From assembly GCA_003599815.1 (NCBI GenBank), contig QZJZ01000105.1, positions 7,174-71,173 of the forward strand: a stretch of DNA of 64,000 nucleotides, given 5' to 3'. Within the stretch, counting starts at the first letter, position 1. Each line of letters starts with the position of its first letter. Shown one piece after another: positions 132-60,145 of this stretch. This stretch comes from Candidatus Auribacter fodinae (GTDB lineage Bacteria > Auribacterota > Auribacteria > Auribacterales > Auribacteraceae). The notes under the pieces are model-generated. The model made no database searches and was not told the DNA's origin. It saw nothing but the letters and a program-made list of their open reading frames with translations. A program made the position numbers and the translations under genes.

Positions 132-497
132 TTAATGCGAATGCGATCCGTGGTTCCTGCACGCGCTCAGTCCTGACAGGCTGTTGCTGAGCAGATGGTT
201 AACCGCTTCCGACGCTTTGCCCTGATAACCGGACACGACTACGCCCGCGTTCGCGAACTTTTGTTGCGCGCCCATTCCCATACTGCCTGATATTACATGA
301 GTTACGCCATACATGAGCATACCGTCAACAGCCACACAGCCTCCACCGCCATGGACATTTTCGTTCCGCACAACCTGCGTATCTTTTATTTTTCCGTTTT
401 CCACATCGACCAGCAGGAAATAAGGACTCTGCCCGAAATGCAGAGATACCTGCCCTTCAAGCCCCTGCTGATCTTCCATCGTAATTCCGATTCGCAT
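132..497 (-). CDS. NifB/NifX-like dinitrogenase FeMo-cofactor-binding domain protein (121 aa)
   Basis: The translation has the PHFGxxPYFLLVD motif, a GGGG turn and Gly/Ala-rich alpha/beta repeats typical of the Nitro_FeMo-Co small-protein family. It lies last in a minus-strand operon with Mrp and DUF5320. Confidence 0.6.
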   Translation of the reverse strand: MRIGITMEDQQGLEGQVSLHFGQSPYFLLVDVENGKIKDTQVVRNENVHGGGGCVAVDGMLMYGVTHVISGSMGMGAQQKFANAGVVVSGYQGKASEAVNHLLSNSLSGLSACRNHGSHSH

Positions 498-3105: not shown

Positions 3106-5865
3106 TTATTGAGAATATTCTTTAAGGAAAAGCTGAAATAAACTCTTTTGATCTCTGCTTAGTTTGTCGTATTCTTCTGAATTCTTTGTATAATCCGAAA
3201 TCATATTATAGAGTTCCTTGAGATTATCCGATATCCAGGGTTTTGCAGCAGAGAAAGTTCTATTATTCATATCGTTTTGAAGGCTATCAGAACAAGCGTG
3301 TAAAAATTTATAGCAGTGGTTTATATTCTTTTTGATGTAAGGGATTATTGTATCAAAAATATCGATTTTGTTTTGTTTGAACCAGAAGAGTACTTTCTTG
3401 AAAACTTCCAAATCAGTAAGACTCTCCAAATTGATTAAAGAAGCATTTTGATTCTCCTTAATGGCTTTTACCAACAACTCTTTCAAATCAGGATAAAATT
3501 GTTTTTCGAAAATCACTCGGATAAAAAGTATTTTTGCGAATAGATGCTCCATTTTATTAAAAACATTTTTGATATCCCCATCTTTCTTAAAATTCTCATG
3601 ACAATACAGAGATACCAATAGAGAAACAGCGTTTGTCCCAATAACCTCGTCATTGATATTCTCAGAAAGTAGCGAAATTACAGCTTTGAACATAAAAAAA
3701 AGTATATCGTGATTGATATCTCTATTATCAGAGACAAAACCCCTCAACAAATAGACCAATTTCGCCAACGGAATATCAGAAGTGCATATATTATTGTGCA
3801 CTTCTTTTTCAGTCATTTCAGTTGTTTTTAACCTAGTAAGGAAGGCTTTTATCTTGCTGTAACTGATATTTTCAGGACTCACGTGAAGGGAAAAATATTT
3901 ATCAAAGAAATCATAATGGCAAATTTTGTATTGACTCATCCATTCAACTCGTTTCGCTAGCAAATAACTCATTGCTCGATTATTTGCATATGCCACAACC
4001 GGAAACAAATATTCCAGAATTTTACTTAATCTGTCTTTTTCTATGGATAAAATATCTTTGTTGTGCTCTGCAATATTCTTATGAAAAATATCCTCTTTTC
4101 TTTTATCCGATCGATTACCTTGCGCTCTATTTGCCGCTTCCTCACTAGAGTATATGTACAAATCTCTATTTGACCAGATATCATCATAAACAGCATGAGA
4201 AATAAACCTGATTATTTCCAACAGCAAAAAATCATTCACATTAACTTCATCTTTAATCTGAGGTATATCAAAGGATACGGAGTTCAAATATCTTTTTACA
4301 TCCCGCAATGTATTGAAGTGCAAGATTGGAACATTTGCTTCAAACACTGCATACTCTTCTTCACCTATTTTTTCTGTTTCAAAAAGTAACTTAATACCTT
4401 TCTTCAAGTATTTATTAAGATAATATGCTTCTATTTTGGGCAATCGGTTAGGATGTTGAACAATTTTTCCCAGATAATCTCTATCACCAAGCTCTTTTAT
4501 GACTTTATCGTCGTCCAGCGCGACCAAGAACCTGGTATTGTCAAGTTTTGCATTTAAACGTATAAGTTTAAGTACGCTAAGTAATTCGTCTTTTTGCAAT
4601 CTGTCCAGATCATCAATGATGATTAATATTTTTTTCTCAGTTCGCCTTATATATTCATTAAGTTTACTTCTCAATTCTTCGAGATTTTCTTCACAACTTG
4701 ATTTTGCAAAACATTTGAGGTATTTATTCTCCCCTAAAATAGTATTTACATACTTATTTAATGTTTTGCTGAAATCCCTGAACAGAAAATTATAACACAC
4801 AGCGTTTTCAATCTGCTTATAAAAATTTTTCAATAACACTGTTTCATCTTCAAAATGCCATGGATCAAATTCTACCACCATATACTTAGACGACATTTTT
4901 TGTTTAGCCTGTTCTCTTTTCTCAGGGTCTTCTTCAGTTCCTCGAAATATCGACTTAAGAATCTCCAGAACAGAACTTTTCCCTTCACCCCATGACCCAT
5001 ATAAACCGATGACATGGGAATGGATATCTTTGATTTCGTCTATACGTTTTGCAAGTCCCTTAATGAAATCGATTCGCCCTAATTCATCTTGATCAAGGCG
5101 AGTTATCGGTTCATCGTTATAAATTTGTTTTCTTTCTTCTTCCTCATCTTTTCCAGCGTTTTGAGGAGTATTACTTTTTGGTTTTACAAAGAAAGCTCGT
5201 ATTACGATAATAAAGCCATAAATTACTGCAAAAATCATTATGCTTTTGAAATATAGATCAGATAACGAAAATCTCTGTAGCAAAGCGTTTAAACCCGACT
5301 TCGCAGGCCACAATACCCCTGCGCATATTAAAATTACATATAAAAATATAAATTCTTCAAAAACAAAGAGTGAGTTTTTAAGTTTAAGTGTATTGTGATA
5401 TTTCCTGAAAAAATCTATGAGTATGCTCCAAAAGCAAAACGCCAGAAAAGTCAAGACAACATAGATCAATACGATCAACAGTATATCCTGATACAAGAAA
5501 TCACTTATTTTAAATATTATTGATCTGAAATCGATATGTAGTTTATGTAAAAGATACTGAATTCCCAGAAAAGTTATCACTGCAAGTAACAGCGTATACC
5601 AATGTCGCTTCCAATTCCTCATCTTTCGTAACTTACCCTTATAAAGAATGAAATGAAGCAAAAAGAAAAATAAGGGGATATAGAAAAGACACTGAGGCAA
5701 ATCGACATAAATATCAATTAACACAAGAAAGACGGACAGTAAAAGAGCAACTGGTGTATAGAATGACCTTGAGAGTATTATCGTTACAATTTGTTTGATT
5801 AGCTCTTTCATCTTTTCTGCTGTAATGGTTTTATTGGAGATGCAGATCAGCTTACCCAATGACAT
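3106..5865 (-). CDS. KAP-family P-loop NTPase with N-terminal multi-pass membrane domain (919 aa)
   Basis: The Walker A motif GLYGSWGEGKSS and Walker B motif ILIIIDDLDRL are hallmarks of KAP NTPases. Roughly 250 aa of N-terminal hydrophobic helices precede them. The gene is markedly AT-rich relative to its neighbours. Confidence 0.65.
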   Translation of the reverse strand: MSLGKLICISNKTITAEKMKELIKQIVTIILSRSFYTPVALLLSVFLVLIDIYVDLPQCLFYIPLFFFLLHFILYKGKLRKMRNWKRHWYTLLLAVITFLGIQYLLHKLHIDFRSIIFKISDFLYQDILLIVLIYVVLTFLAFCFWSILIDFFRKYHNTLKLKNSLFVFEEFIFLYVILICAGVLWPAKSGLNALLQRFSLSDLYFKSIMIFAVIYGFIIVIRAFFVKPKSNTPQNAGKDEEEERKQIYNDEPITRLDQDELGRIDFIKGLAKRIDEIKDIHSHVIGLYGSWGEGKSSVLEILKSIFRGTEEDPEKREQAKQKMSSKYMVVEFDPWHFEDETVLLKNFYKQIENAVCYNFLFRDFSKTLNKYVNTILGENKYLKCFAKSSCEENLEELRSKLNEYIRRTEKKILIIIDDLDRLQKDELLSVLKLIRLNAKLDNTRFLVALDDDKVIKELGDRDYLGKIVQHPNRLPKIEAYYLNKYLKKGIKLLFETEKIGEEEYAVFEANVPILHFNTLRDVKRYLNSVSFDIPQIKDEVNVNDFLLLEIIRFISHAVYDDIWSNRDLYIYSSEEAANRAQGNRSDKRKEDIFHKNIAEHNKDILSIEKDRLSKILEYLFPVVAYANNRAMSYLLAKRVEWMSQYKICHYDFFDKYFSLHVSPENISYSKIKAFLTRLKTTEMTEKEVHNNICTSDIPLAKLVYLLRGFVSDNRDINHDILFFMFKAVISLLSENINDEVIGTNAVSLLVSLYCHENFKKDGDIKNVFNKMEHLFAKILFIRVIFEKQFYPDLKELLVKAIKENQNASLINLESLTDLEVFKKVLFWFKQNKIDIFDTIIPYIKKNINHCYKFLHACSDSLQNDMNNRTFSAAKPWISDNLKELYNMISDYTKNSEEYDKLSRDQKSLFQLFLKEYSQ

Positions 5866-12767: not shown

Positions 12768-12921
12768 TTGGGAGTGCTGAAAAAGATTCTAAGTTCCTCT
12801 TTTAAGATGTCATCACAAGGAGCGTTAGCGGCGTGGTGATCTTAAAATGAATAAAGCTGAGATTGCCACAGCCCCTTTGGGGCTTCGCAATGACATTCTC
12901 TTGTGACTTTTTCATCGTTCT
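12768..12921 (+). repeat. Novel ~150-bp intergenic repeat, copy 1
   Basis: It is 85-90% identical to the copies at 14744-14895 (inverted), 41218-41354 and 52573-52727. It ends 37 bp before the ATG at 12958. Confidence 0.65.
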
Positions 12922-12957: not shown

Positions 12958-14559
12958 ATGCGATCAATAATACATCTGGCGTTATTACTGACACTCGCGG
13001 CAGTCATATTTTCAGGCTCGCTCAGGGCGGACGATACTATCAACTTGGACGGCAGTTATTTTTACGGGGGGTTCAGCAGTCATTCGCCATATCCGTACGA
13101 ACCGTACACAGCCATCGGTGACCAGTACATATCCGGTTCAAGCATGGTGCTGACGCTCAACTTCTCGGACGATCCGCCATCTCAAACGTTCCTGACAATC
13201 ACCAACACGTTTTATGACAGCGAAGGATGGCTCAACCTCATTGTAGAGCTCGATAACGAGACATATCACGAAATAGGGATAGCGAACGACTGGCTCGCCA
13301 TATTTGTTATGCGCGACCCGGGTGTGGATGAAATACTTGACATAACATACAGCCTCAAGAAAAAGACTGCGCCCACTATTGCGGAAATCGCGGGCGAGTA
13401 CTCTATTTTCGGGCATTATTCCGGCGTGGGCAGTGATGAAATGTGGAGTTCATCCATGAACGGCGCCGTCACTCTGGGGCTGGATGGTTCTCTCACATAC
13501 AGCGTTACACCTGATTTCGGCGACACGGAAACAGGGGCATCAACATACACTCTTAACGCCTCTACCTCCACCATATATGTAACAGGCGTCGGAGAATTCC
13601 TTATCGGCGAAGGCGGTATGTTAATGCGCTTTGACAGGGATGCTTCAGACAACGAACTTTTCTATGAAATTCTGGTAAAACGGTCGTCAGGGAAAACCCT
13701 GGCTGATTTTGAAGGGTGCTGGAAATTCCAGGCGTTCGCGGCAGGCGATAACACCAGAGCGCCTTACACCGCATGGGGGTTAGCGGTAGTTTTTAATGAC
13801 GGAACCTGCCTTGTATCCAACGACTACTACGGGTATACCAGCGAGACCGTATCTGCAGTCATTTCCGCTTCTGACAACGGGGTGTTTACGGTAACCAGCA
13901 ATCTCGGGTACGAATATACCGGCATACTGAGCCCGGCATCCGATGCGGCAATCATGCAGATCGCCATTGACGAACTCTACCACTCGGTAGGCACTGCCAT
14001 AAAGATACAGCTCGACCCGTCGGACGATAATGACAACGACGGCATCAGCAACAACATGGAATTCGCGCAAAAAATCAATCCTCTTAACCCTGATACCGAC
14101 TCAGACGGCATGCCCGACGGCTGGGAACTCGCGAATACCCTCAGCCCCCGCGATAACGACGCTGAATCCGACACTGACCTTGACGGGCTCACCGCTCTGC
14201 GGGAATACAGCCTCAACACCAACCCCAACAACGATGACTCCGATAACGACGGGTTTAAAGACGGCGACGAAATCACCGCAGGCACGAATCCGAATGACAA
14301 TATATCCTTTTTTACAATGGTTTACATCAATCCCCGGACAAACACCCTCTGCTGGGTAGGCGCAACTACTGCCAGCTACAGGATGTCATGGAAAGATTCA
14401 TTTGACGAGTTCTGGCATGAAGTAACGCTATCGTCGGACGAACTGGTGTTTCAGTCAGATACTGTATCATACACAGATAACGGCGACGACACTTCTGTTC
14501 CGGCAAGACTGCCTCTCAATGAAGCAAATAAACGATTATACAAAATTACCGCATACTAA
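12958..14559 (+). CDS. secreted protein with thrombospondin-type-3-like Ca-binding Asp-rich repeats
   Basis: It has a signal peptide and six or more DxDxDG(x)xD/N motifs (e.g. DPSDDNDNDGISN, DTDSDGMPDGWE, DDSDNDGFKDGDE) in the C-terminal third. Confidence 0.5.
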   Translation: MRSIIHLALLLTLAAVIFSGSLRADDTINLDGSYFYGGFSSHSPYPYEPYTAIGDQYISGSSMVLTLNFSDDPPSQTFLTITNTFYDSEGWLNLIVELDNETYHEIGIANDWLAIFVMRDPGVDEILDITYSLKKKTAPTIAEIAGEYSIFGHYSGVGSDEMWSSSMNGAVTLGLDGSLTYSVTPDFGDTETGASTYTLNASTSTIYVTGVGEFLIGEGGMLMRFDRDASDNELFYEILVKRSSGKTLADFEGCWKFQAFAAGDNTRAPYTAWGLAVVFNDGTCLVSNDYYGYTSETVSAVISASDNGVFTVTSNLGYEYTGILSPASDAAIMQIAIDELYHSVGTAIKIQLDPSDDNDNDGISNNMEFAQKINPLNPDTDSDGMPDGWELANTLSPRDNDAESDTDLDGLTALREYSLNTNPNNDDSDNDGFKDGDEITAGTNPNDNISFFTMVYINPRTNTLCWVGATTASYRMSWKDSFDEFWHEVTLSSDELVFQSDTVSYTDNGDDTSVPARLPLNEANKRLYKITAY

Positions 14560-14743
14560 CGCACATCATCCATCGGCACATAACTCTCACAGCGGCAAGA
14601 GCAGGCAATAATAAATATTTTATTGTTTTTATGTCAGGGCATTATTATTCGCTTGTGATGCATGATAACCGGTTTATTTCTATTTGCCTTCTTATTAAAC
14701 TGTGCTATTGTTACAGTATATTGATAACATCCAATTAAAATAT

Positions 14744-14895
14744 GGGACCGATGAAAAGTCACAAAAAAATGTCATTGCGAAGCCCGAAGTGTCTGCGGCA
14801 ATCTCAGCTCGATTCATTTTGAGATCACCACGCCGCTAACGATCCTCATGATGACAGCTTAAGGAGAAATTGATAGACTTTTTCAGCGCACCAAA
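14744..14895 (-). repeat. Novel ~150-bp intergenic repeat, copy 2 (inverted)
   Basis: This is the reverse-complement copy and the most divergent, with a 1-nt indel in the core. Its edge is 20 bp from the kinase ATG at 14916. Confidence 0.65.
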
Positions 14896-38756: not shown

Positions 38757-38890
38757 CGGAATAAAAAGATATTTACTTTACATTATTTTTAAATTTATTT
38801 AATTTTTTGCTGGACAAATTATTTCTGAGTTTGGTACCGTAAATCAACTTCATCTTGAACCTCTTCTTTTGATTTCCCCTTTTTACTATT
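38757..38890. repeat. ~130-bp AT-rich direct repeat, unit 1 (MCP/rrf2 divergent promoter region)
   Basis: It is about 75% identical to 39119-39255 and shares the cores tttacattatttt, gctggacaaatta and ttgaac. Confidence 0.45.
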
Positions 38891-39118
38891 ATGATCGTAT
38901 TTCATACAATTATAGTATAGTATTTAGATTGACATGTTTTAAATATGATAAATAATCAACAAGGCGTCCTTCATCCAAAGATAATGCAGATACAAATAGT
39001 AACTCCGATGATTTTTCCTATTTCTTTAATAGGATATGTTGCATTGACATTCTTAATTCCATCATGGCTTTTTTCTGCAACCACTTGATAATCATAAAAA
39101 TATAATTATTATTTATAA

Positions 39119-39255
39119 GGGCATAAAAAATATTGCCTTTACATTATTTTATTTTTTATTTTTTTATTGATTTTTATGCTGGACAAATTAGTTTTGAGTC
39201 TGATAATCTTTTTTTCAGTTCATTTTGAACTTCATTATTTTTATTGTTTTTTCGT
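39119..39255. repeat. ~130-bp AT-rich direct repeat, unit 2
   Basis: It pairs with unit 1 and ends about 45 bp before the rrf2 ATG. Confidence 0.45.
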
Positions 39256-41217: not shown

Positions 41218-41354
41218 TTGGGAGTGCAGAAAAAGATTCTAAGTCTAATGGAGGAGCGTTAGCGACGTGGTGATCTCAAAATGAATAGAGATGAGATTGT
41301 CACAGCCCCTCTGGGGCTTCGCAATGAGATTCTCTTGTGCTTTTTCATTGCTCT
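41218..41354 (+). repeat. Novel ~150-bp intergenic repeat, copy 3 (with ~20-nt internal deletion)
   Basis: It aligns to copies 1 and 4. It lies about 225 bp upstream of the ATG at 41579. Confidence 0.6.
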
Positions 41355-41578
41355 CAAATTACATGACAGACCTACCATATGACACATGTTTTCCCTCGCC
41401 TTCTTTACTTATTTTTGCTATAATAACAGTAAGATTGAAATAGATATTTTGTGATACGGAAAACTACGTTGTAAAATCTTTGTTCTTTGAATATAATGAT
41501 CTTGATATAAAGTTAATACAAACGAATATTAATCCATTTTTTACAAAAAAAACGCATTTATCACTGGAGGATAATGCA

Positions 41579-43860: not shown

Positions 43861-44706
43861 CTATAATGTTCTAAAAAAGTCATCATCAACAGAAATATCT
43901 TCAATAGTTTTTTGCTTAATTACTAAACCTAAACGCAACTCTCTTAATTTTTCAGCAAGAGCTTGTCCATCAACTAGATCAACTGGTGGAGCACCATCTC
44001 TTTTGGCTTCTTTTTTTGCATCTGGACTAAACGTGCCTGTTGTTAGAATTAATCCTTTTTCCGCTCTGCCAATCATTGCACCCCGAAAATCTCTAACGAC
44101 AGAAGCAGAAACACTACCCTGATAACGTTTACACTGGAAAATAATTGGAAACGATAATAAACCGCCAATGCGAATAATTCCTTTACCGTCAATTCCTCCA
44201 TCGCCTGATTTTCCAGTGACTTCTACTTGTGTAAAACCAGCTTCACGTAACAATCGTTGGCATAACCGTTCAAAAGCATCTGGGGAAACTGCCTTAATCT
44301 TCTCTAATAAAACATTCTGCCAAGCAATTTCCTCAGGTTCCTTATCATTGTTTAATGCACCATCAACACTATCTTCTGATTTTGAGCCGAGTTTCTTCAC
44401 AAATCTATCAACTTTTGCCTTGCTAACATTTTCGGTTTTTCTGCCTTCCGGAGTTAACGCCCATATTCCACGAACTGAATTATTTAGTAACCCATATCTC
44501 TTTAAATAATGGCGTGCCCATGCCAACCTATTACTAAAAACTGTACAATTTCTATACTGAATTTTAGTAATATCTTCATCTGATAACCCAAGTATTTTCG
44601 CAACTTCCTCCTCCTGTTCTGAAATGGAAGCTGAACTCCCTAAATTATGCATAGCTTTCAACAACGGATTAAACAAATCATTATATTTTGGGATAGTCAT
44701 AACCAT
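43861..44706 (-). CDS. mrr: Mrr-type restriction endonuclease (type IV, modification-dependent)
   Basis: An Mrr_N winged helix is followed by an Mrr_cat PD-(D/E)xK core (GKSGDGGIDG...FQCKRY). The gene is AT-rich. Confidence 0.75.
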   Translation of the reverse strand: MVMTIPKYNDLFNPLLKAMHNLGSSASISEQEEEVAKILGLSDEDITKIQYRNCTVFSNRLAWARHYLKRYGLLNNSVRGIWALTPEGRKTENVSKAKVDRFVKKLGSKSEDSVDGALNNDKEPEEIAWQNVLLEKIKAVSPDAFERLCQRLLREAGFTQVEVTGKSGDGGIDGKGIIRIGGLLSFPIIFQCKRYQGSVSASVVRDFRGAMIGRAEKGLILTTGTFSPDAKKEAKRDGAPPVDLVDGQALAEKLRELRLGLVIKQKTIEDISVDDDFFRTL

Positions 44707-51294: not shown

Positions 51295-52407
51295 ATGAAT
51301 GGTCAAAAACGTTCTGGTTTTTCCTTGTTAGAAATACTGCTTTGCTTTGCCGGGCTTTCTGTAGTAATGACAGTCATTGTGTCAGCGAGCCATCGTGTCC
51401 GCGACCACGCGCACACCACTTTATGCATGAATAATCTCCGCCAGATATCCTTCGCGGTGTCACAATATTACAACGACCATAAAGAATATCCGCGCGGATT
51501 GCCCTACGATACTCTGTCCAGCCAGCTGGACAGCTATATCGGGGCGTCTGTGTTTATCTGTCCTGAAGACAAAATGGAACTGTCAGACAGTTACAGCCAG
51601 TACTACGTGTATCGAGGCAATGACGTATCCGCCTTTCAGTATGTTATAGGATGCCCGCGCCATGCGTCCCGATCGCGTTCTGTTAATATTTTTTCACTGC
51701 AGAAAGCGCAAACCTGCAATAACGCAAAGGTTGTCGCCAACCATACTGAAATTCTGCCCGGAGCGGCAACTACCGGAACCATTACGCTTGACGATGGAAC
51801 CACCATTCAATCTGACACAGTAAAAATGATCCTGATCCAGTCTGTCAAGCTCGGCGGAGGCGCGTTGTACACTGTTGTACGGGTACCTGATACGGAAACA
51901 GGCAAAGTTACCGTAAACGCTACTCCCGGCACAAAGCTGGAAATCGTGACGCCCGCTGTTGTCGCCGGTGTAAGAGGTACTCGTTTTGTGCTGGATATCG
52001 GCTATCAGGATGACGTGCCGTACACTAACGTCAATGTTGAGGAAGGCGTAGTCGCGGTGGAACCTCTGGGCGGCGACATGATAGACGGTACATCCGTAAA
52101 AGCGGCTGGTTTCAGCCCCATATTGCTAACCAAAGGAATGTCAGTCAATATACGCAACCGGCAAAAACCTTTTCACTTTGAAGCGTTGACTGAACGTATT
52201 GTATACTTGCGTAAAAAGATCGCCGGCTACGAATCAATAGGCAAAGACAGCCAAAATGTCCGTAACTACTGCGACTGGCTGGAAAAAACCAAAACACGGG
52301 AACTCGCAGAACTAGCGGACGATTCTGATAACACAAATGAAACCGCGAGTGATACCGCGAATGACGCCGCGGTTAATAACGCGAACCCAAACGCGGCTAT
52401 AAAATAG
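51295..52407 (+). CDS. prepilin-type N-terminal cleavage/methylation domain protein with FecR-like beta-domain, paralog A
   Basis: The type-IV pilin leader is KRSG|FSLLEIL (Phe+1, Glu+5). The FecR-like motif VVAGVRGTRFVLD is present. The C-terminal tail is Asn/Ala-rich. Confidence 0.55.
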   Translation: MNGQKRSGFSLLEILLCFAGLSVVMTVIVSASHRVRDHAHTTLCMNNLRQISFAVSQYYNDHKEYPRGLPYDTLSSQLDSYIGASVFICPEDKMELSDSYSQYYVYRGNDVSAFQYVIGCPRHASRSRSVNIFSLQKAQTCNNAKVVANHTEILPGAATTGTITLDDGTTIQSDTVKMILIQSVKLGGGALYTVVRVPDTETGKVTVNATPGTKLEIVTPAVVAGVRGTRFVLDIGYQDDVPYTNVNVEEGVVAVEPLGGDMIDGTSVKAAGFSPILLTKGMSVNIRNRQKPFHFEALTERIVYLRKKIAGYESIGKDSQNVRNYCDWLEKTKTRELAELADDSDNTNETASDTANDAAVNNANPNAAIK

Positions 52408-52572
52408 ATTGATTGACAGGCGAGCGTAACAAAAGAGCTCGCAGAAAACCACCTATATTTTTCAATAAACCGCCTGCCGGATACCGCCGGCAGGCGGTTT
52501 ATTGCCTGTATGTCGCCTTATATATTCTTGAACAGTTTGATGTTACTACGCCGAATAAATTCCTTTAATACG

Positions 52573-52727
52573 TTTGGAGCGCTGAAAAAGATTCTAAATT
52601 CCTCTTTTAAGATGTCATCACGAGGAGCGTTAACGACGTGGTGATCTCAAAATGAATAGAGCTGAGATTGCCACAGCCCCTTTGGGGCTTCGCAATGACA
52701 TTCTCTTGTGACTTTTTCATCGTTCTC
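52573..52727 (+). repeat. Novel ~150-bp intergenic repeat, copy 4 (most complete)
   Basis: It lies between the two prepilin/FecR paralogs and ends 138 bp before the ATG at 52865. Confidence 0.65.
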
Positions 52728-52864
52728 ACGTTACTTTCTTTGATTTTAGTGTACTTTTTTCGGTATTTACCCTACTTTTATGTAAATTTATAAGCTTCCT
52801 GTTCCGATAAATGCTGTAAGATTATTGTATCTGGTGACAATGCTATTATATACCGGGAGCAGTT

Positions 52865-54037
52865 ATGAAAAAAATACACAGCATAAAAGGGTTCACTCTC
52901 TTAGATATTCTCATCTGCATAACGACTCTGTCCGTAGTATCGACCATTATCTTCACTGCCGGTAAAGAAGTACGATTTAAAGCGAACACAACTATCTGCA
53001 TGAATAACCTTCGCCAGATATCGTTTGCCATGGCAAGCTATTACGCGGACTATCAGGATTACCCGCGCGGGCTTCCATACGGCACACTCAGCGCGCAGTT
53101 ACATTCATACATGTCCAACGAACTTGTGTTTCTCTGCCCTGAAGACAAATTCGAGGAAGTTGACAGTTACAGCGAATATTATGTATACCGGGGCGACGAC
53201 CTCGCGTCATTTAAGTATGTGCTGGGCTGTCCTCGCCATAGAAGACAGAAAACAGCCACAAATATCTTTTCTCTCCAGACAGCCAAAAATTACCCGAACG
53301 CAACCGTTCTGGCGAATAATAAAGTTGTCACAGCCGGTTCGTTTACCAGCGGAACACTTCTGCTGGAAGACAACTCAATCGTTGAAACCGGTTCAGCAGA
53401 AGTCATGATCGTTCAGTCGCTAAGGCTTGAAAACGGATTGCTGTATACCGTACTGCGTGTTCCGGACGGAGAAAGCGGCAAAATCACCGTTAATGCCACC
53501 ACAGGAACTAAGCTTGAAGTGGTAACGCCATCCGTAGTTGCCGGGGTGAGAGGCACTGAATTTGAAGTAGACTTCGGGTACTCGGAATCATACCCGTACG
53601 CGAATGTTACTGTTATTTCAGGCAGTGTGGCGGTAGTTCCTCTCGATGGAAAAGTCGAGTATAACGGACAGCTGGTCAATGCCGGCAAACAGGAAATGAT
53701 TCTTAATGAGAACATGACCGTGAAAATACACGCTAACCCGCATTATTACAACAGCAAACAGATTGGCAAACGGCTGGATAAACTATCAAGAAAAATTGAC
53801 CGTTTGGAATCAATCGGGCATGAAACCGAAAAAGCCGAGGGGCTGTATGAATGGCTCAGCACCCAGTATCCCGGGTCAGGCGAACTTGTGTATGACAGCG
53901 AAACCCAGCAGTGGGGCCCGCCTCCTCCGCCGCCTCCTCCGGAAGAGGAAGGTTCCGAAGGAGAAGAACCGCCGCCCGAAGATCCACCTGAGGAAGAAGG
54001 CGGATTCTGGGAATGGTGGACTGGATTCTGGCTCTAA
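52865..54037 (+). CDS. prepilin-type N-terminal domain protein with FecR-like beta-domain, paralog B (Pro-rich, aromatic C-terminus)
   Basis: The leader is HSIKG|FTLLDIL. It aligns with paralog A throughout (TICMNNLRQISFA..., YPRGLPY, CPEDK, VVAGVRGTEFEVD). The C-terminus is GPPPPPPPPEEEG...FWEWWTGFWL. Confidence 0.55.
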   Translation: MKKIHSIKGFTLLDILICITTLSVVSTIIFTAGKEVRFKANTTICMNNLRQISFAMASYYADYQDYPRGLPYGTLSAQLHSYMSNELVFLCPEDKFEEVDSYSEYYVYRGDDLASFKYVLGCPRHRRQKTATNIFSLQTAKNYPNATVLANNKVVTAGSFTSGTLLLEDNSIVETGSAEVMIVQSLRLENGLLYTVLRVPDGESGKITVNATTGTKLEVVTPSVVAGVRGTEFEVDFGYSESYPYANVTVISGSVAVVPLDGKVEYNGQLVNAGKQEMILNENMTVKIHANPHYYNSKQIGKRLDKLSRKIDRLESIGHETEKAEGLYEWLSTQYPGSGELVYDSETQQWGPPPPPPPPEEEGSEGEEPPPEDPPEEEGGFWEWWTGFWL

Positions 54038-54070
54038 AATATAACAGATACATTAAATCAGCATAAAAAA

Positions 54071-54110
54071 AGCCCTGATACTTTCGGGTATCAGGGCTTT
54101 ATATATTTTT
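54071..54110. terminator. Bidirectional rho-independent terminator
   Basis: The hairpin agccctgatac-tttcg-ggtatcagggct has an A-run on its 5' side and a T-rich run on its 3' side, between convergent genes. Confidence 0.5.
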
Positions 54111-59881: not shown

Positions 59882-60145
59882 TTATGATTTATGAGACCCG
59901 CACGCGGCTTTACATGCGTCAGACCCCTTCGGAGCGCCGCATCCGCCGCATTTTTCTCCGCACGCCATTTTACATGCGTCAGATCCTTTAACCGCACCGC
60001 ATTTAGCGCATACTTCCTCTTTTTTGCCCATTGAATACTGTTCCACAGCCGATGACACAACGCATGGGCATTGCCCTCCTGCGAATGCGTTACTGTTAAT
60101 AACCATAACCGCCATCACAGCAATCAGTAATAATGCTTTTTTCAT
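59882..60145 (-). CDS. small secreted Cys-rich tandem-repeat protein (87 aa; 12 Cys)
   Basis: The signal peptide MKKALLLIAVMAVMVINSNAFA after GGAGG is followed by two repeats, C(A/G)xCGA(V/P)KGSDACK(M/A)ACG. Confidence 0.45.
   Translation of the reverse strand: MKKALLLIAVMAVMVINSNAFAGGQCPCVVSSAVEQYSMGKKEEVCAKCGAVKGSDACKMACGEKCGGCGAPKGSDACKAACGSHKS

Follow-up and report, generated by a model that had tools for sequence, protein, structure and literature searches.

What kind of protein places a FecR-like domain behind the leader of a type IV pilin, and why do two genes for such proteins lie side by side? The question is raised by a pair of tandem genes, here called A and B, in a 64,000-nucleotide stretch of contig QZJZ01000105.1 from 'Candidatus Auribacter fodinae' (this whole stretch is referred to below as the window). 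A first-pass annotation, made from the sequence without database searches, had described the two genes as paralogs that combine a prepilin leader with a FecR-like body and divergent low-complexity C-terminal tails. We find that both open reading frames (ORFs) have exactly the boundaries it gave, and that the encoded proteins are 49% identical across 339 residues (BLASTP, E 4e-117). From profile searches and predicted structures, A and B are identified as paralogs in tandem that belong to a conserved family of putative two-module, pilin-like proteins of the envelope, which is found in Auribacterota and in related phyla of the Planctomycetes-Verrucomicrobia-Chlamydiae (PVC) type.

Each gene is preceded by a plausible Shine-Dalgarno-like sequence (GGAGG or GGGAG) located 6–8 nt 5' of the ATG. 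The leader context reads MNGQKRSG/FSLLEILL in A and MKKIHSIKG/FTLLDILI in B, where the slash marks the predicted cut. The mature N-terminus of A is thus FSLLE, with Glu13 at position +5. Among the ORFs of the window the prepilin motif occurs in A and B only. The two internal motifs pointed out in the first pass, (I/L)CPEDK and VVAGVRGT(R/E)F, are found in both proteins. The AlphaFold2 (AF2) models have a predicted local distance difference test score (pLDDT) of 86.2 and a predicted template modelling score (pTM) of 0.80 for A, and a pLDDT of 84.1 and a pTM of 0.77 for B. In both models the N-terminal helix is followed by a loop bearing two short helices and then by a small beta-sheet; next come a larger body that is all beta and a helical hairpin, and the tail is disordered. 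Structure prediction of the body had been proposed as a check on the first-pass description, and in Foldseek searches the modelled body fold matches FecR-type periplasmic domains. The ratio of nonsynonymous to synonymous substitution rates (dN/dS) is 0.05 between A orthologs and about 0.13–0.18 between A and B, which places the cores under purifying selection. These values, together with a core common to 158 representative clusters, rule out a pseudogene or an artefact.

The N-terminal module begins with a predicted alpha1 helix of 52 residues (aa 11–62 in A, 12–63 in B) that leads into the beta-sheet. In A, the motifs C-x-NNLRQI and ICPED are located in the alpha-beta loop and GCPRH in the small beta-sheet. 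When a profile of 24 family members was compared with the PDB, it matched geopilin (E 3.8e-10) and then the N-termini of TcpA, PilA, PilE and GspG. In addition, Foldseek aligns the N-terminal part of A with the type IVb pilin 9iuf_A (probability 0.99, root-mean-square deviation (rmsd) 2.3 Å, 97 columns). The features expected around a prepilin cleavage site are retained across 133 relatives: position -1 is Gly, Ala or Ser in 116, position +1 is Phe in 104 and Phe, Leu or Met in 119, and mature position +5 is Glu in 123 and Asp in 4. The Pfam N_methyl model is detected in 14 of 26 long relatives at E<=1e-3 (best 1.5e-8).

The family head aligns with a profile that we built from 49 ordinary DUF1559 genes with a probability of 99.9 and an E-value of 1.8e-33 (hhalign). 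The confident alignment covers about 105 residues, comprising the leader, alpha1, C-x-NNLRQI, phi-x-CP-x-D and S/T-x-Y, and extends no further. The second, H-X9-DG half of such proteins (TIGR04294) gave no NCBIfam match in A or B even at E<=10, and hhalign gave no confident match beyond residue ~105. A candidate H-X9-DG motif, H123-x9-FS, was dropped as it is supported by neither method. In A and B the place of this half is taken by the FecR module. The head is therefore classed as a predicted truncated pseudopilin module of the DUF1559, or PVC, type, which the first-pass annotation had not seen. Four residues of the head, Cys44, Cys89, Cys120 and His123, are kept in 130–132 of 133 relatives; they are spread over the C-terminal part of alpha1, the alpha-beta loop and the head's first beta-strand. 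With three cysteines, an odd number, and one histidine, the set suggests a candidate Zn-type site, or alternatively a disulfide plus a free thiol.

The FecR similarity of the second module, previously read from the VVAGVRGT(R/E)F motif, holds up under profile search. PF04773 is matched at 27.0 bits in A and 26.3 bits in B, both above the Pfam gathering threshold of 24, and in 23 of the 26 long relatives (best 2.3e-11). For both models the top four Foldseek matches are to 4m0n/4m0h, the periplasmic domain of the putative anti-sigma factor BDI_1681, and to 6ovk_R, the C-terminal cell-surface signalling domain (CCSSD) of PupR, with a probability of 1.00 and E-values of 1.6e-5 to 6.7e-4. The best NCBIfam matches are the Leptospira proteins Lsa33, LipL45 and Lsa19 (E 8e-9 to 1e-3), which score far under the family cut-offs. 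Run against PDB sequences only, the family profile returned pilins but no FecR-type chain; Pfam and Foldseek were required to show the FecR relation.

What had gone unrecognized within the FecR-like motif is a putative site of autoproteolysis. Two reports (PMC12036975; PMC9249621) give the Gly181/Thr182 bond of FecR as the mapped self-cleavage site, and place the work that established the mechanism, an N-O acyl rearrangement, on Gly191-Thr192 of FoxR. The cleaved FecR fragments remain associated until force exerted through TonB parts them (PMC12036975). We took the E. coli FecR sequence from NC_000913.3, where Gly181-Thr182 lies within LTALGTEFTV, and aligned it with hhalign solely to set the register of the dyad. 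FecR 122–205 falls on A 164–256, with G181/T182 on G228/T229 and 'LEDGS', where the domain begins, on 'LDDGT'. The Gly-Thr dyad is invariant in the 24-member alignment; in the wider family Gly is present in 127 of 133 sequences, Thr in 125, and the Phe two residues on in 119. In the AF2 model of A the dyad is located in the turn joining strands 222–227 and 230–238. By this alignment, the VRGTxF motif is a predicted Gly/Thr self-cleavage site of the FecR/FoxR type in matching register, and A and B probably self-cleave there.

A word-indexed search of 5.8 billion clusters found only 27 relatives, and an exhaustive profile search among 1.84 billion found 158 representatives (of 50%-identity clusters) at E <= 1e-30. 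At E <= 1e-10 there are 46,139 matches, which are ordinary N-termini of DUF1559 proteins or pilins. Nearly all of the 158 representatives align with profile positions 1 to ~265; their lengths vary between 145 and 1470 aa. Among contigs representing one genome per species, full-length relatives occur in metagenome-assembled genomes (MAGs) of Auribacterota, Planctomycetota (including Brocadiia), Omnitrophota, Ratteibacteria and TA06. Public records name relatives 'FecR domain-containing' or 'DUF1559 domain-containing' proteins. B itself is identical to P0004, which is recorded as the hypothetical protein C4541_13510 of 'Ca. Auribacter fodinae', and the A ortholog P0001, labelled Candidatus Auribacterota as other relatives are too, is 94% identical to A. 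Genomes usually carry 2–4 copies, both tandem and dispersed, with arrays of two here and in the syntenic L089 and of three in L005/L084. In this last array (L084 7627–11305, equivalent to L005 8860–12192) the middle paralog is a protein of 412 aa that has no Pfam annotation and ends in (GN)n-polyAsp-KNKNK.

The family diverges beyond position ~265–290. In the Auribacterota clade the hairpin is followed by a tail that is Asn/Ala-rich, of the (GN)n-polyAsp kind, coiled-coil-like, or Pro/Glu-rich with an aromatic tip. The divergence that the first pass had described for this pair fits this pattern: A ends in an Asn/Ala-rich tail, and B has a Pro8 stretch followed by an acidic Pro/Glu segment and the tip FWEWWTGFWL. 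Other tips of Pro/Glu-rich tails are DFWLWWLCH, WLIWVWWLFF and FWHWFFKFLFLY. In all, C-terminal tips rich in Trp or other aromatic residues occur in 13 of 133 members, often with Arg or Lys and usually after a Pro/acidic linker; among these are B, P0007, P0009, P0010, P0012, P0084, P0089, P0147 and P0163. The tip of B is predicted as a short helix (aa 381–389, pLDDT ~57). The aromatic tip may anchor the protein at a membrane interface or act as a tag for sorting. Longer members carry MopE-type Cu-binding, Big_7, Big_13, PKD, HYR, cadherin-like, Rib or He_PIG modules at their C-termini. Because the C-termini vary and long members append modules of surface type, the conserved core of leader, head and FecR module behaves as a carrier of exchangeable surface-type cargo.

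A comparison with the syntenic L089 shows such an exchange at this locus. The two are 97–99% identical, except for a replaced, non-homologous block at 52234–52747 (compared with L089 10940–11242) that holds the hairpin and tail of A (from about codon 287–313), the stop codon, the terminator and a repeat element, the end of which forms the right edge of the block. Between A and its L089 counterpart, the synonymous divergence (dS) is 1.34 within the replaced segment and 0.061 in the core. This difference in dS points to recombination with a diverged allele and not to local drift. The replacement of a tail between near-identical genomes in turn points to fast diversification of a surface-exposed part.

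The genes that surround A and B encode Tex, DsbD, a rhodanese, a Phenol_MetA_deg outer-membrane barrel, a 165-aa protein of no assigned family, an IMPDH-like protein, a GT4 and a GH94. We considered a functional link to the upstream Phenol_MetA_deg barrel and dropped it, since the adjacency is kept only in the near-identical L089. In nine contexts (this locus and eight other loci) no gene for an extracytoplasmic function (ECF) sigma factor or for a TonB-dependent transducer is adjacent to a family member. An ECF sigma gene in L084 is divergently oriented with a dUTPase gene between, and was judged coincidental.

A few members have more suggestive surroundings. The ortholog P0007 is located at the 3' end of a cluster resembling those for type II secretion systems (T2SS) and type IV pili (T4P). 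This cluster starts with GspF, a peptidase_MA_2 protein, a GspG-like pseudopilin and a second N_methyl protein, and continues with three proteins of no assigned family, a PilM-PilN fusion, a GspM-like protein and a TMEM260-type glycosyltransferase of fold C (GT-C); P0007 follows, with a PMT_2 GT-C glycosyltransferase downstream. The family member in L022, a TA06 MAG, has a GspG-like gene ~450 bp upstream. PMT_2 genes are found downstream of family members in three genomes, immediately so in L004/L083 and L005/L084 and at a distance of ~1.6 kb in L006. No PMT_2 gene is present in the window or in the syntenic L089. Auribacterota MAGs have been reported to encode type IV pili (PMC9324843).

The explanation that we favour, with a little better than even confidence, is that A and B are bimodular pilins or pseudopilins, processed by prepilin peptidase, anchored by alpha1 and able to join a filament of the T2SS/T4P type, and that they carry a probably self-cleaving FecR module with a hypervariable tail. 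The leader would be cut off by prepilin peptidase. The N-terminal segment of alpha1 would anchor the protein in the cytoplasmic membrane and could allow it to enter such a filament as a minor subunit, probably at the tip. Self-cleavage of the FecR module would occur by an N-O acyl shift at Gly228/Thr229 in A and at Gly230/Thr231 in B. The C-terminal fragment, consisting of the last beta-strands, the hairpin and the tail, would stay attached to the pilin-anchored fragment by non-covalent contacts. The module might thus serve as a joint that can be displayed and separated and by which the variable tail is presented or tethered, and in B the Pro/Glu spacer and Trp-rich tip could serve as a membrane-interface anchor.

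A more specific version of this explanation, which we regard as speculative and distinctly unlikely, would have the FecR module function as a self-cleaved, force-separable 'breakaway joint' within a pilin. A load arising from extension or retraction of the filament, or from a pull on a bound surface or membrane, would part the tail, tip or adhesin cargo from the anchored fragment. The autoproteolytic mechanosensing domains SEA and GAIN, and the TonB-driven dissociation of FecR, would be analogous. If true, this would amount to force-gated release of cargo, or to exposure of a stub to proteases, in a type IV filament.

Several results weigh against the filament explanation. The Pfam models for the N-terminus stay under their gathering thresholds, with N_methyl (PF07963) at 13.1 bits in both A and B (threshold 21.2) and DUF1559 (PF07596) at 20.1 and 20.4 bits, respectively (just under 23.3). 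The prepilin site had been called canonical in both proteins. The leader and the Gly/Phe junction are indeed present in each; however, B has Asp and not the canonical Glu at +5. The Foldseek matches to FecR-type domains have low TM-scores (0.2–0.39) and high rmsd because the overlap is limited to one module. The hhalign comparison that sets the register of the dyad has an E-value of 0.16, which is weak alone, and self-cleavage depends also on the local geometry at the dyad. Neither a prepilin peptidase nor machinery for a pilus or T2SS is encoded in the window. At most loci the family member is an orphan gene far from filament machinery, and no filament role has been demonstrated for the DUF1559 class (PMC10632474). 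These last two points favour an alternative that we consider possible but on the whole unlikely, namely that A and B never polymerize and use the pilin-like N-terminus as a signal-anchor only. The FecR module and tail would then span the periplasm from the inner membrane towards the outer membrane, and in B a TonB-like Pro/Glu spacer would bring the Trp-rich tip into contact with the outer membrane. The protein would be an envelope-spanning tether, or a proteolysis-gated envelope sensor that works without a sigma factor, and the same use of a signal-anchor may also hold for many orphan DUF1559 paralogs of PVC bacteria. This is consistent with the location of the same domain in FecR, which works between both membranes (PMC12036975; PMC9249621). 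It is also consistent with the recurrence of Pro/Glu-rich linkers with Trp-rich tips in the family and with the helix predicted for the aromatic tip. However, Glu at +5 is ~92% conserved, and in pilins this residue matters for filament assembly, not for membrane insertion. Additionally, the Ig-like (immunoglobulin-like), cadherin-like or Rib-type modules of long members are typical of surface-exposed proteins, the P0007 ortholog sits at the end of a T2SS/T4P-like operon, and for a sensor no output domain or partner is evident.

The same evidence bears on two further alternatives. That A and B are genuine regulators of the FecR/FoxR kind, anti-sigma or pro-sigma factors signalled by a TonB-dependent transducer, would account for a FecR domain above the Pfam cut-off, a fold like those of PupR and BDI_1681 and a conserved Gly-Thr dyad. 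However, a mere 8–9 residues precede the membrane helix, which leaves no room for a cytoplasmic sigma-binding domain, and none is detected in A or B by Pfam or NCBIfam. Pfam likewise finds no STN domain, whose place is occupied by the hairpin and low-complexity tail, and the nine contexts lack a neighbouring ECF sigma factor or transducer. We therefore reject this identity as effectively refuted by the architecture and scarcely credible. The claim of the first-pass annotation that the genes belong to an expandable family of sensors divides along the same lines: the family is conserved and multi-copy, with arrays of two or three and dispersed copies, but a sensor role is unsupported because there is no cytoplasmic output domain, STN domain, sigma-factor partner or TonB-dependent-transducer partner. 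Another alternative, which we consider improbable as the main role of the family, is that the Ser/Thr/Asn/Pro-rich tails are substrates for envelope O-glycosylation by an adjacent GT-C of the PMT_2 or TMEM260-like kind, much as pilins are glycosylated by TfpW or PilO, which would make A and B glycan-decorated surface or matrix proteins. The low complexity and disorder of the tails agree with this, as do the PMT_2 genes downstream of members in three genomes and the TMEM260_N GT-C gene upstream in L083. However, PMT_2 is associated with only 3 of ~25 loci and is missing at this locus and in L089. Glycosylation would in any case be compatible with the filament explanation and not exclusive of it.

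The 457-bp spacer between A and B contains several elements of its own (Table 1). A GC-rich hairpin 3' of gene A is likely its terminator; the T-run rule of the terminator-finding tool makes no call for it. As the first-pass annotation had noted, the genes are separated by the fourth copy of a repeat family. The four copies are ~155–160 nt long, 85–95% identical and strongly structured, with minimum free energies of -49 to -53 kcal/mol, terminal inverted repeats and an inner GC hairpin. Copies 1 and 2 are inverted and bracket a TSP3-repeat gene (12958–14559). The A-B spacer of the syntenic L089 is without the repeat, and L089 carries a copy elsewhere (L089 19–173). Rfam gave no match to the repeat, nor to anything else in the window. 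The repeat looks like a miniature inverted-repeat transposable element (MITE) or a mobile structured RNA element.

Table 1. Positions of the features discussed in the text. Coordinates are those of the window unless preceded by the name of another locus; aa, residue numbers in the protein.
Feature	Position	Strand	Evidence
Gene A, 370-aa bimodular pilin-like ORF	51295..52407	+	ORF, Pfam, AF2
A, class III (prepilin-type) leader MNGQKRSG, predicted cut after Gly8	51295..51318	+	sequence
A, pilin module aa 11–155 (alpha1, alpha-beta loop, small beta-sheet)	51325..51759	+	AF2, profiles
A, Cys44 (same position in B)	51424–51426		
A, Cys89 (same position in B)	51559–51561		
A, Cys120 (same position in B)	51652–51654		
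A, His123 (same position in B)	51661–51663		
A, FecR-type all-beta module aa ~158–287	51766..52155	+	PF04773, Foldseek, hhalign
A, Gly228-Thr229, predicted N-O acyl-shift self-cleavage dyad in VRGTRF	51976..51981	+	FecR alignment
A, helical hairpin aa 295–344 and disordered Asn/Ala-rich tail aa 345–370	52177..52404	+	AF2
GC-rich hairpin, 11-bp core stem CCGCCTGCCGG / CCGGCAGGCGG, then TTTATTG	52467..52500	+	sequence reading
Repeat copy 4 (161 nt) of a ~155–160-nt structured, MITE-like repeat, outside the proteins	52573..52733	+	
Conserved upstream region of gene B (own promoter/5' untranslated region, ribosome-binding site); L089 homology restarts	52748..52864	+	
Gene B, 390-aa paralog	52865..54037	+	ORF, Pfam, AF2
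B, pilin module aa 12–157			
B, FecR module aa ~160–290			
B, hairpin aa 297–334			
B, Gly230-Thr231 dyad	53552–53557	+	
B, Pro8/acidic Pro/Glu linker aa 335–380			
B, aromatic tip FWEWWTGFWL	54005–54034	+	
Bidirectional intrinsic terminator 3' of gene B, 14-bp stem, T-runs on both strands	54069..54100	.	
Repeat copy 1	12768–12921	+	
Repeat copy 2	14743–14895	-	
Repeat copy 3 (partial)	41251–41362	+	
PMT_2 genes, 36–40% identical mutually	L083 11374–12828; L084 11390–12823; L006 2773–4158		
TMEM260_N-type GT-C gene upstream of family member	L083 7320–9080		

Other repeats occur in the window. A 48-nt repeat is present at 872–919 and 2485–2532 (94% identical), in each case 3' of one of two adjacent minus-strand genes that encode a ParA-like NTPase and a methyltransferase. 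Two 59-nt units with 73% identity stand in tandem at 59898–60016, and AT-rich repeats of 44–55 nt, ~365 nt apart, are located at 38764–39205. Genes for an Mrr-type restriction endonuclease (43861–44706, minus strand) and a 919-aa KAP-family P-loop NTPase (3106–5865, minus strand) lie in low-GC stretches (GC 0.33–0.39 at 2–6 kb), which may be defence or mobile islands.

Among known systems, the layout of A and B resembles that of the modular pilins, in which a small pilin module bears a grafted functional module, as established on PilB and PilC of S. sanguinis (PMC8179133). Like these, A and B have an N-terminal class III signal peptide, a small pilin module and a bulky C-terminal graft. However, the head of A and B is of the DUF1559 type with a Cys3-His cluster, their graft is predicted to cleave itself, and a hypervariable tail or cargo comes after it, whereas the grafts of PilB and PilC are von Willebrand factor A (vWA) or lectin modules and their genes lie in a defined T4P operon. 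The first-pass annotation did not recognize the architecture as a family. Raynaud et al. 2021 list the combination of IPR012902 (N_methyl) with IPR006860 (FecR) in 12 proteins, among their 15 most frequent architectures and with 'no clear function' (PMC8179133); IPR006860 is the FecR domain (PMC5498481). The pilin-FecR architecture has therefore been catalogued already but is rare and uncharacterized. Because A and B are under the N_methyl cut-off, lists based on InterPro may miss them.

The head links A and B to the DUF1559 / H-X9-DG proteins of Planctomycetota, Verrucomicrobiota and Lentisphaerota, which form the largest paralog group of Planctopirus limnophila and have no known function (PMC10632474). 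The leader, alpha1, C-x-NNL(K/R)QI, phi-x-CP-x-D and S/T-x-Y are held in common, and in both cases the genes are multi-copy and mostly orphan. However, the likeness is confined to the N-terminal ~105–135 residues, the C-terminal half of A and B being the FecR module, and the A/B family has 2–4 copies per genome compared with tens for the DUF1559 proteins.

A and B have in common with FecR, FoxR and PupR the PF04773 beta-domain (in the PupR CCSSD, its juxtamembrane subdomain), the Gly-Thr dyad in register and, by prediction, the tethering of this domain to the inner membrane through an N-terminal helix. Unlike these regulators, they have no sigma-binding domain, twin-arginine translocation (Tat) motif, STN domain or FecI- or FecA-type neighbours, and their anchor is a pilin helix and not a bitopic transmembrane segment. 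A FecR domain outside sigma regulation and on another envelope anchor has precedents in the Leptospira lipoproteins LipL45, Lsa33 and Lsa19, and a TatC-FecR fusion has been noted in Kuenenia (PMC2881027). However, the anchor in these cases is a lipid or a polytopic membrane protein, without a pilin helix or a DUF1559 head. Minor pilins and pseudopilins of the GspK and CofB type are, like A and B, large proteins with extra domains, and are thought to be tip-located (PMC8179133); their extra domains are unrelated to those of A and B, and their genes lie within machinery operons.

Apart from the 2021 catalogue, our search of the literature turned up no paper on a protein that joins a pilin to FecR, and none on the DUF1559 head in this subfamily, on a conserved Gly-Thr dyad in proteins of this design or on what DUF1559 does. 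The result is a well-supported annotation of a catalogued but uncharacterized architecture in an uncultured phylum, and not a new class of system. If the predictions made here hold, the self-cleaving FecR domain would not be restricted to sigma signalling; it would be an envelope module that is portable and that a pilin helix can carry. Type IV filament biology would gain an autoproteolytic, separable kind of grafted module, and the large, unexplained DUF1559 pilin-like class of PVC bacteria would gain a small and tractable subfamily.

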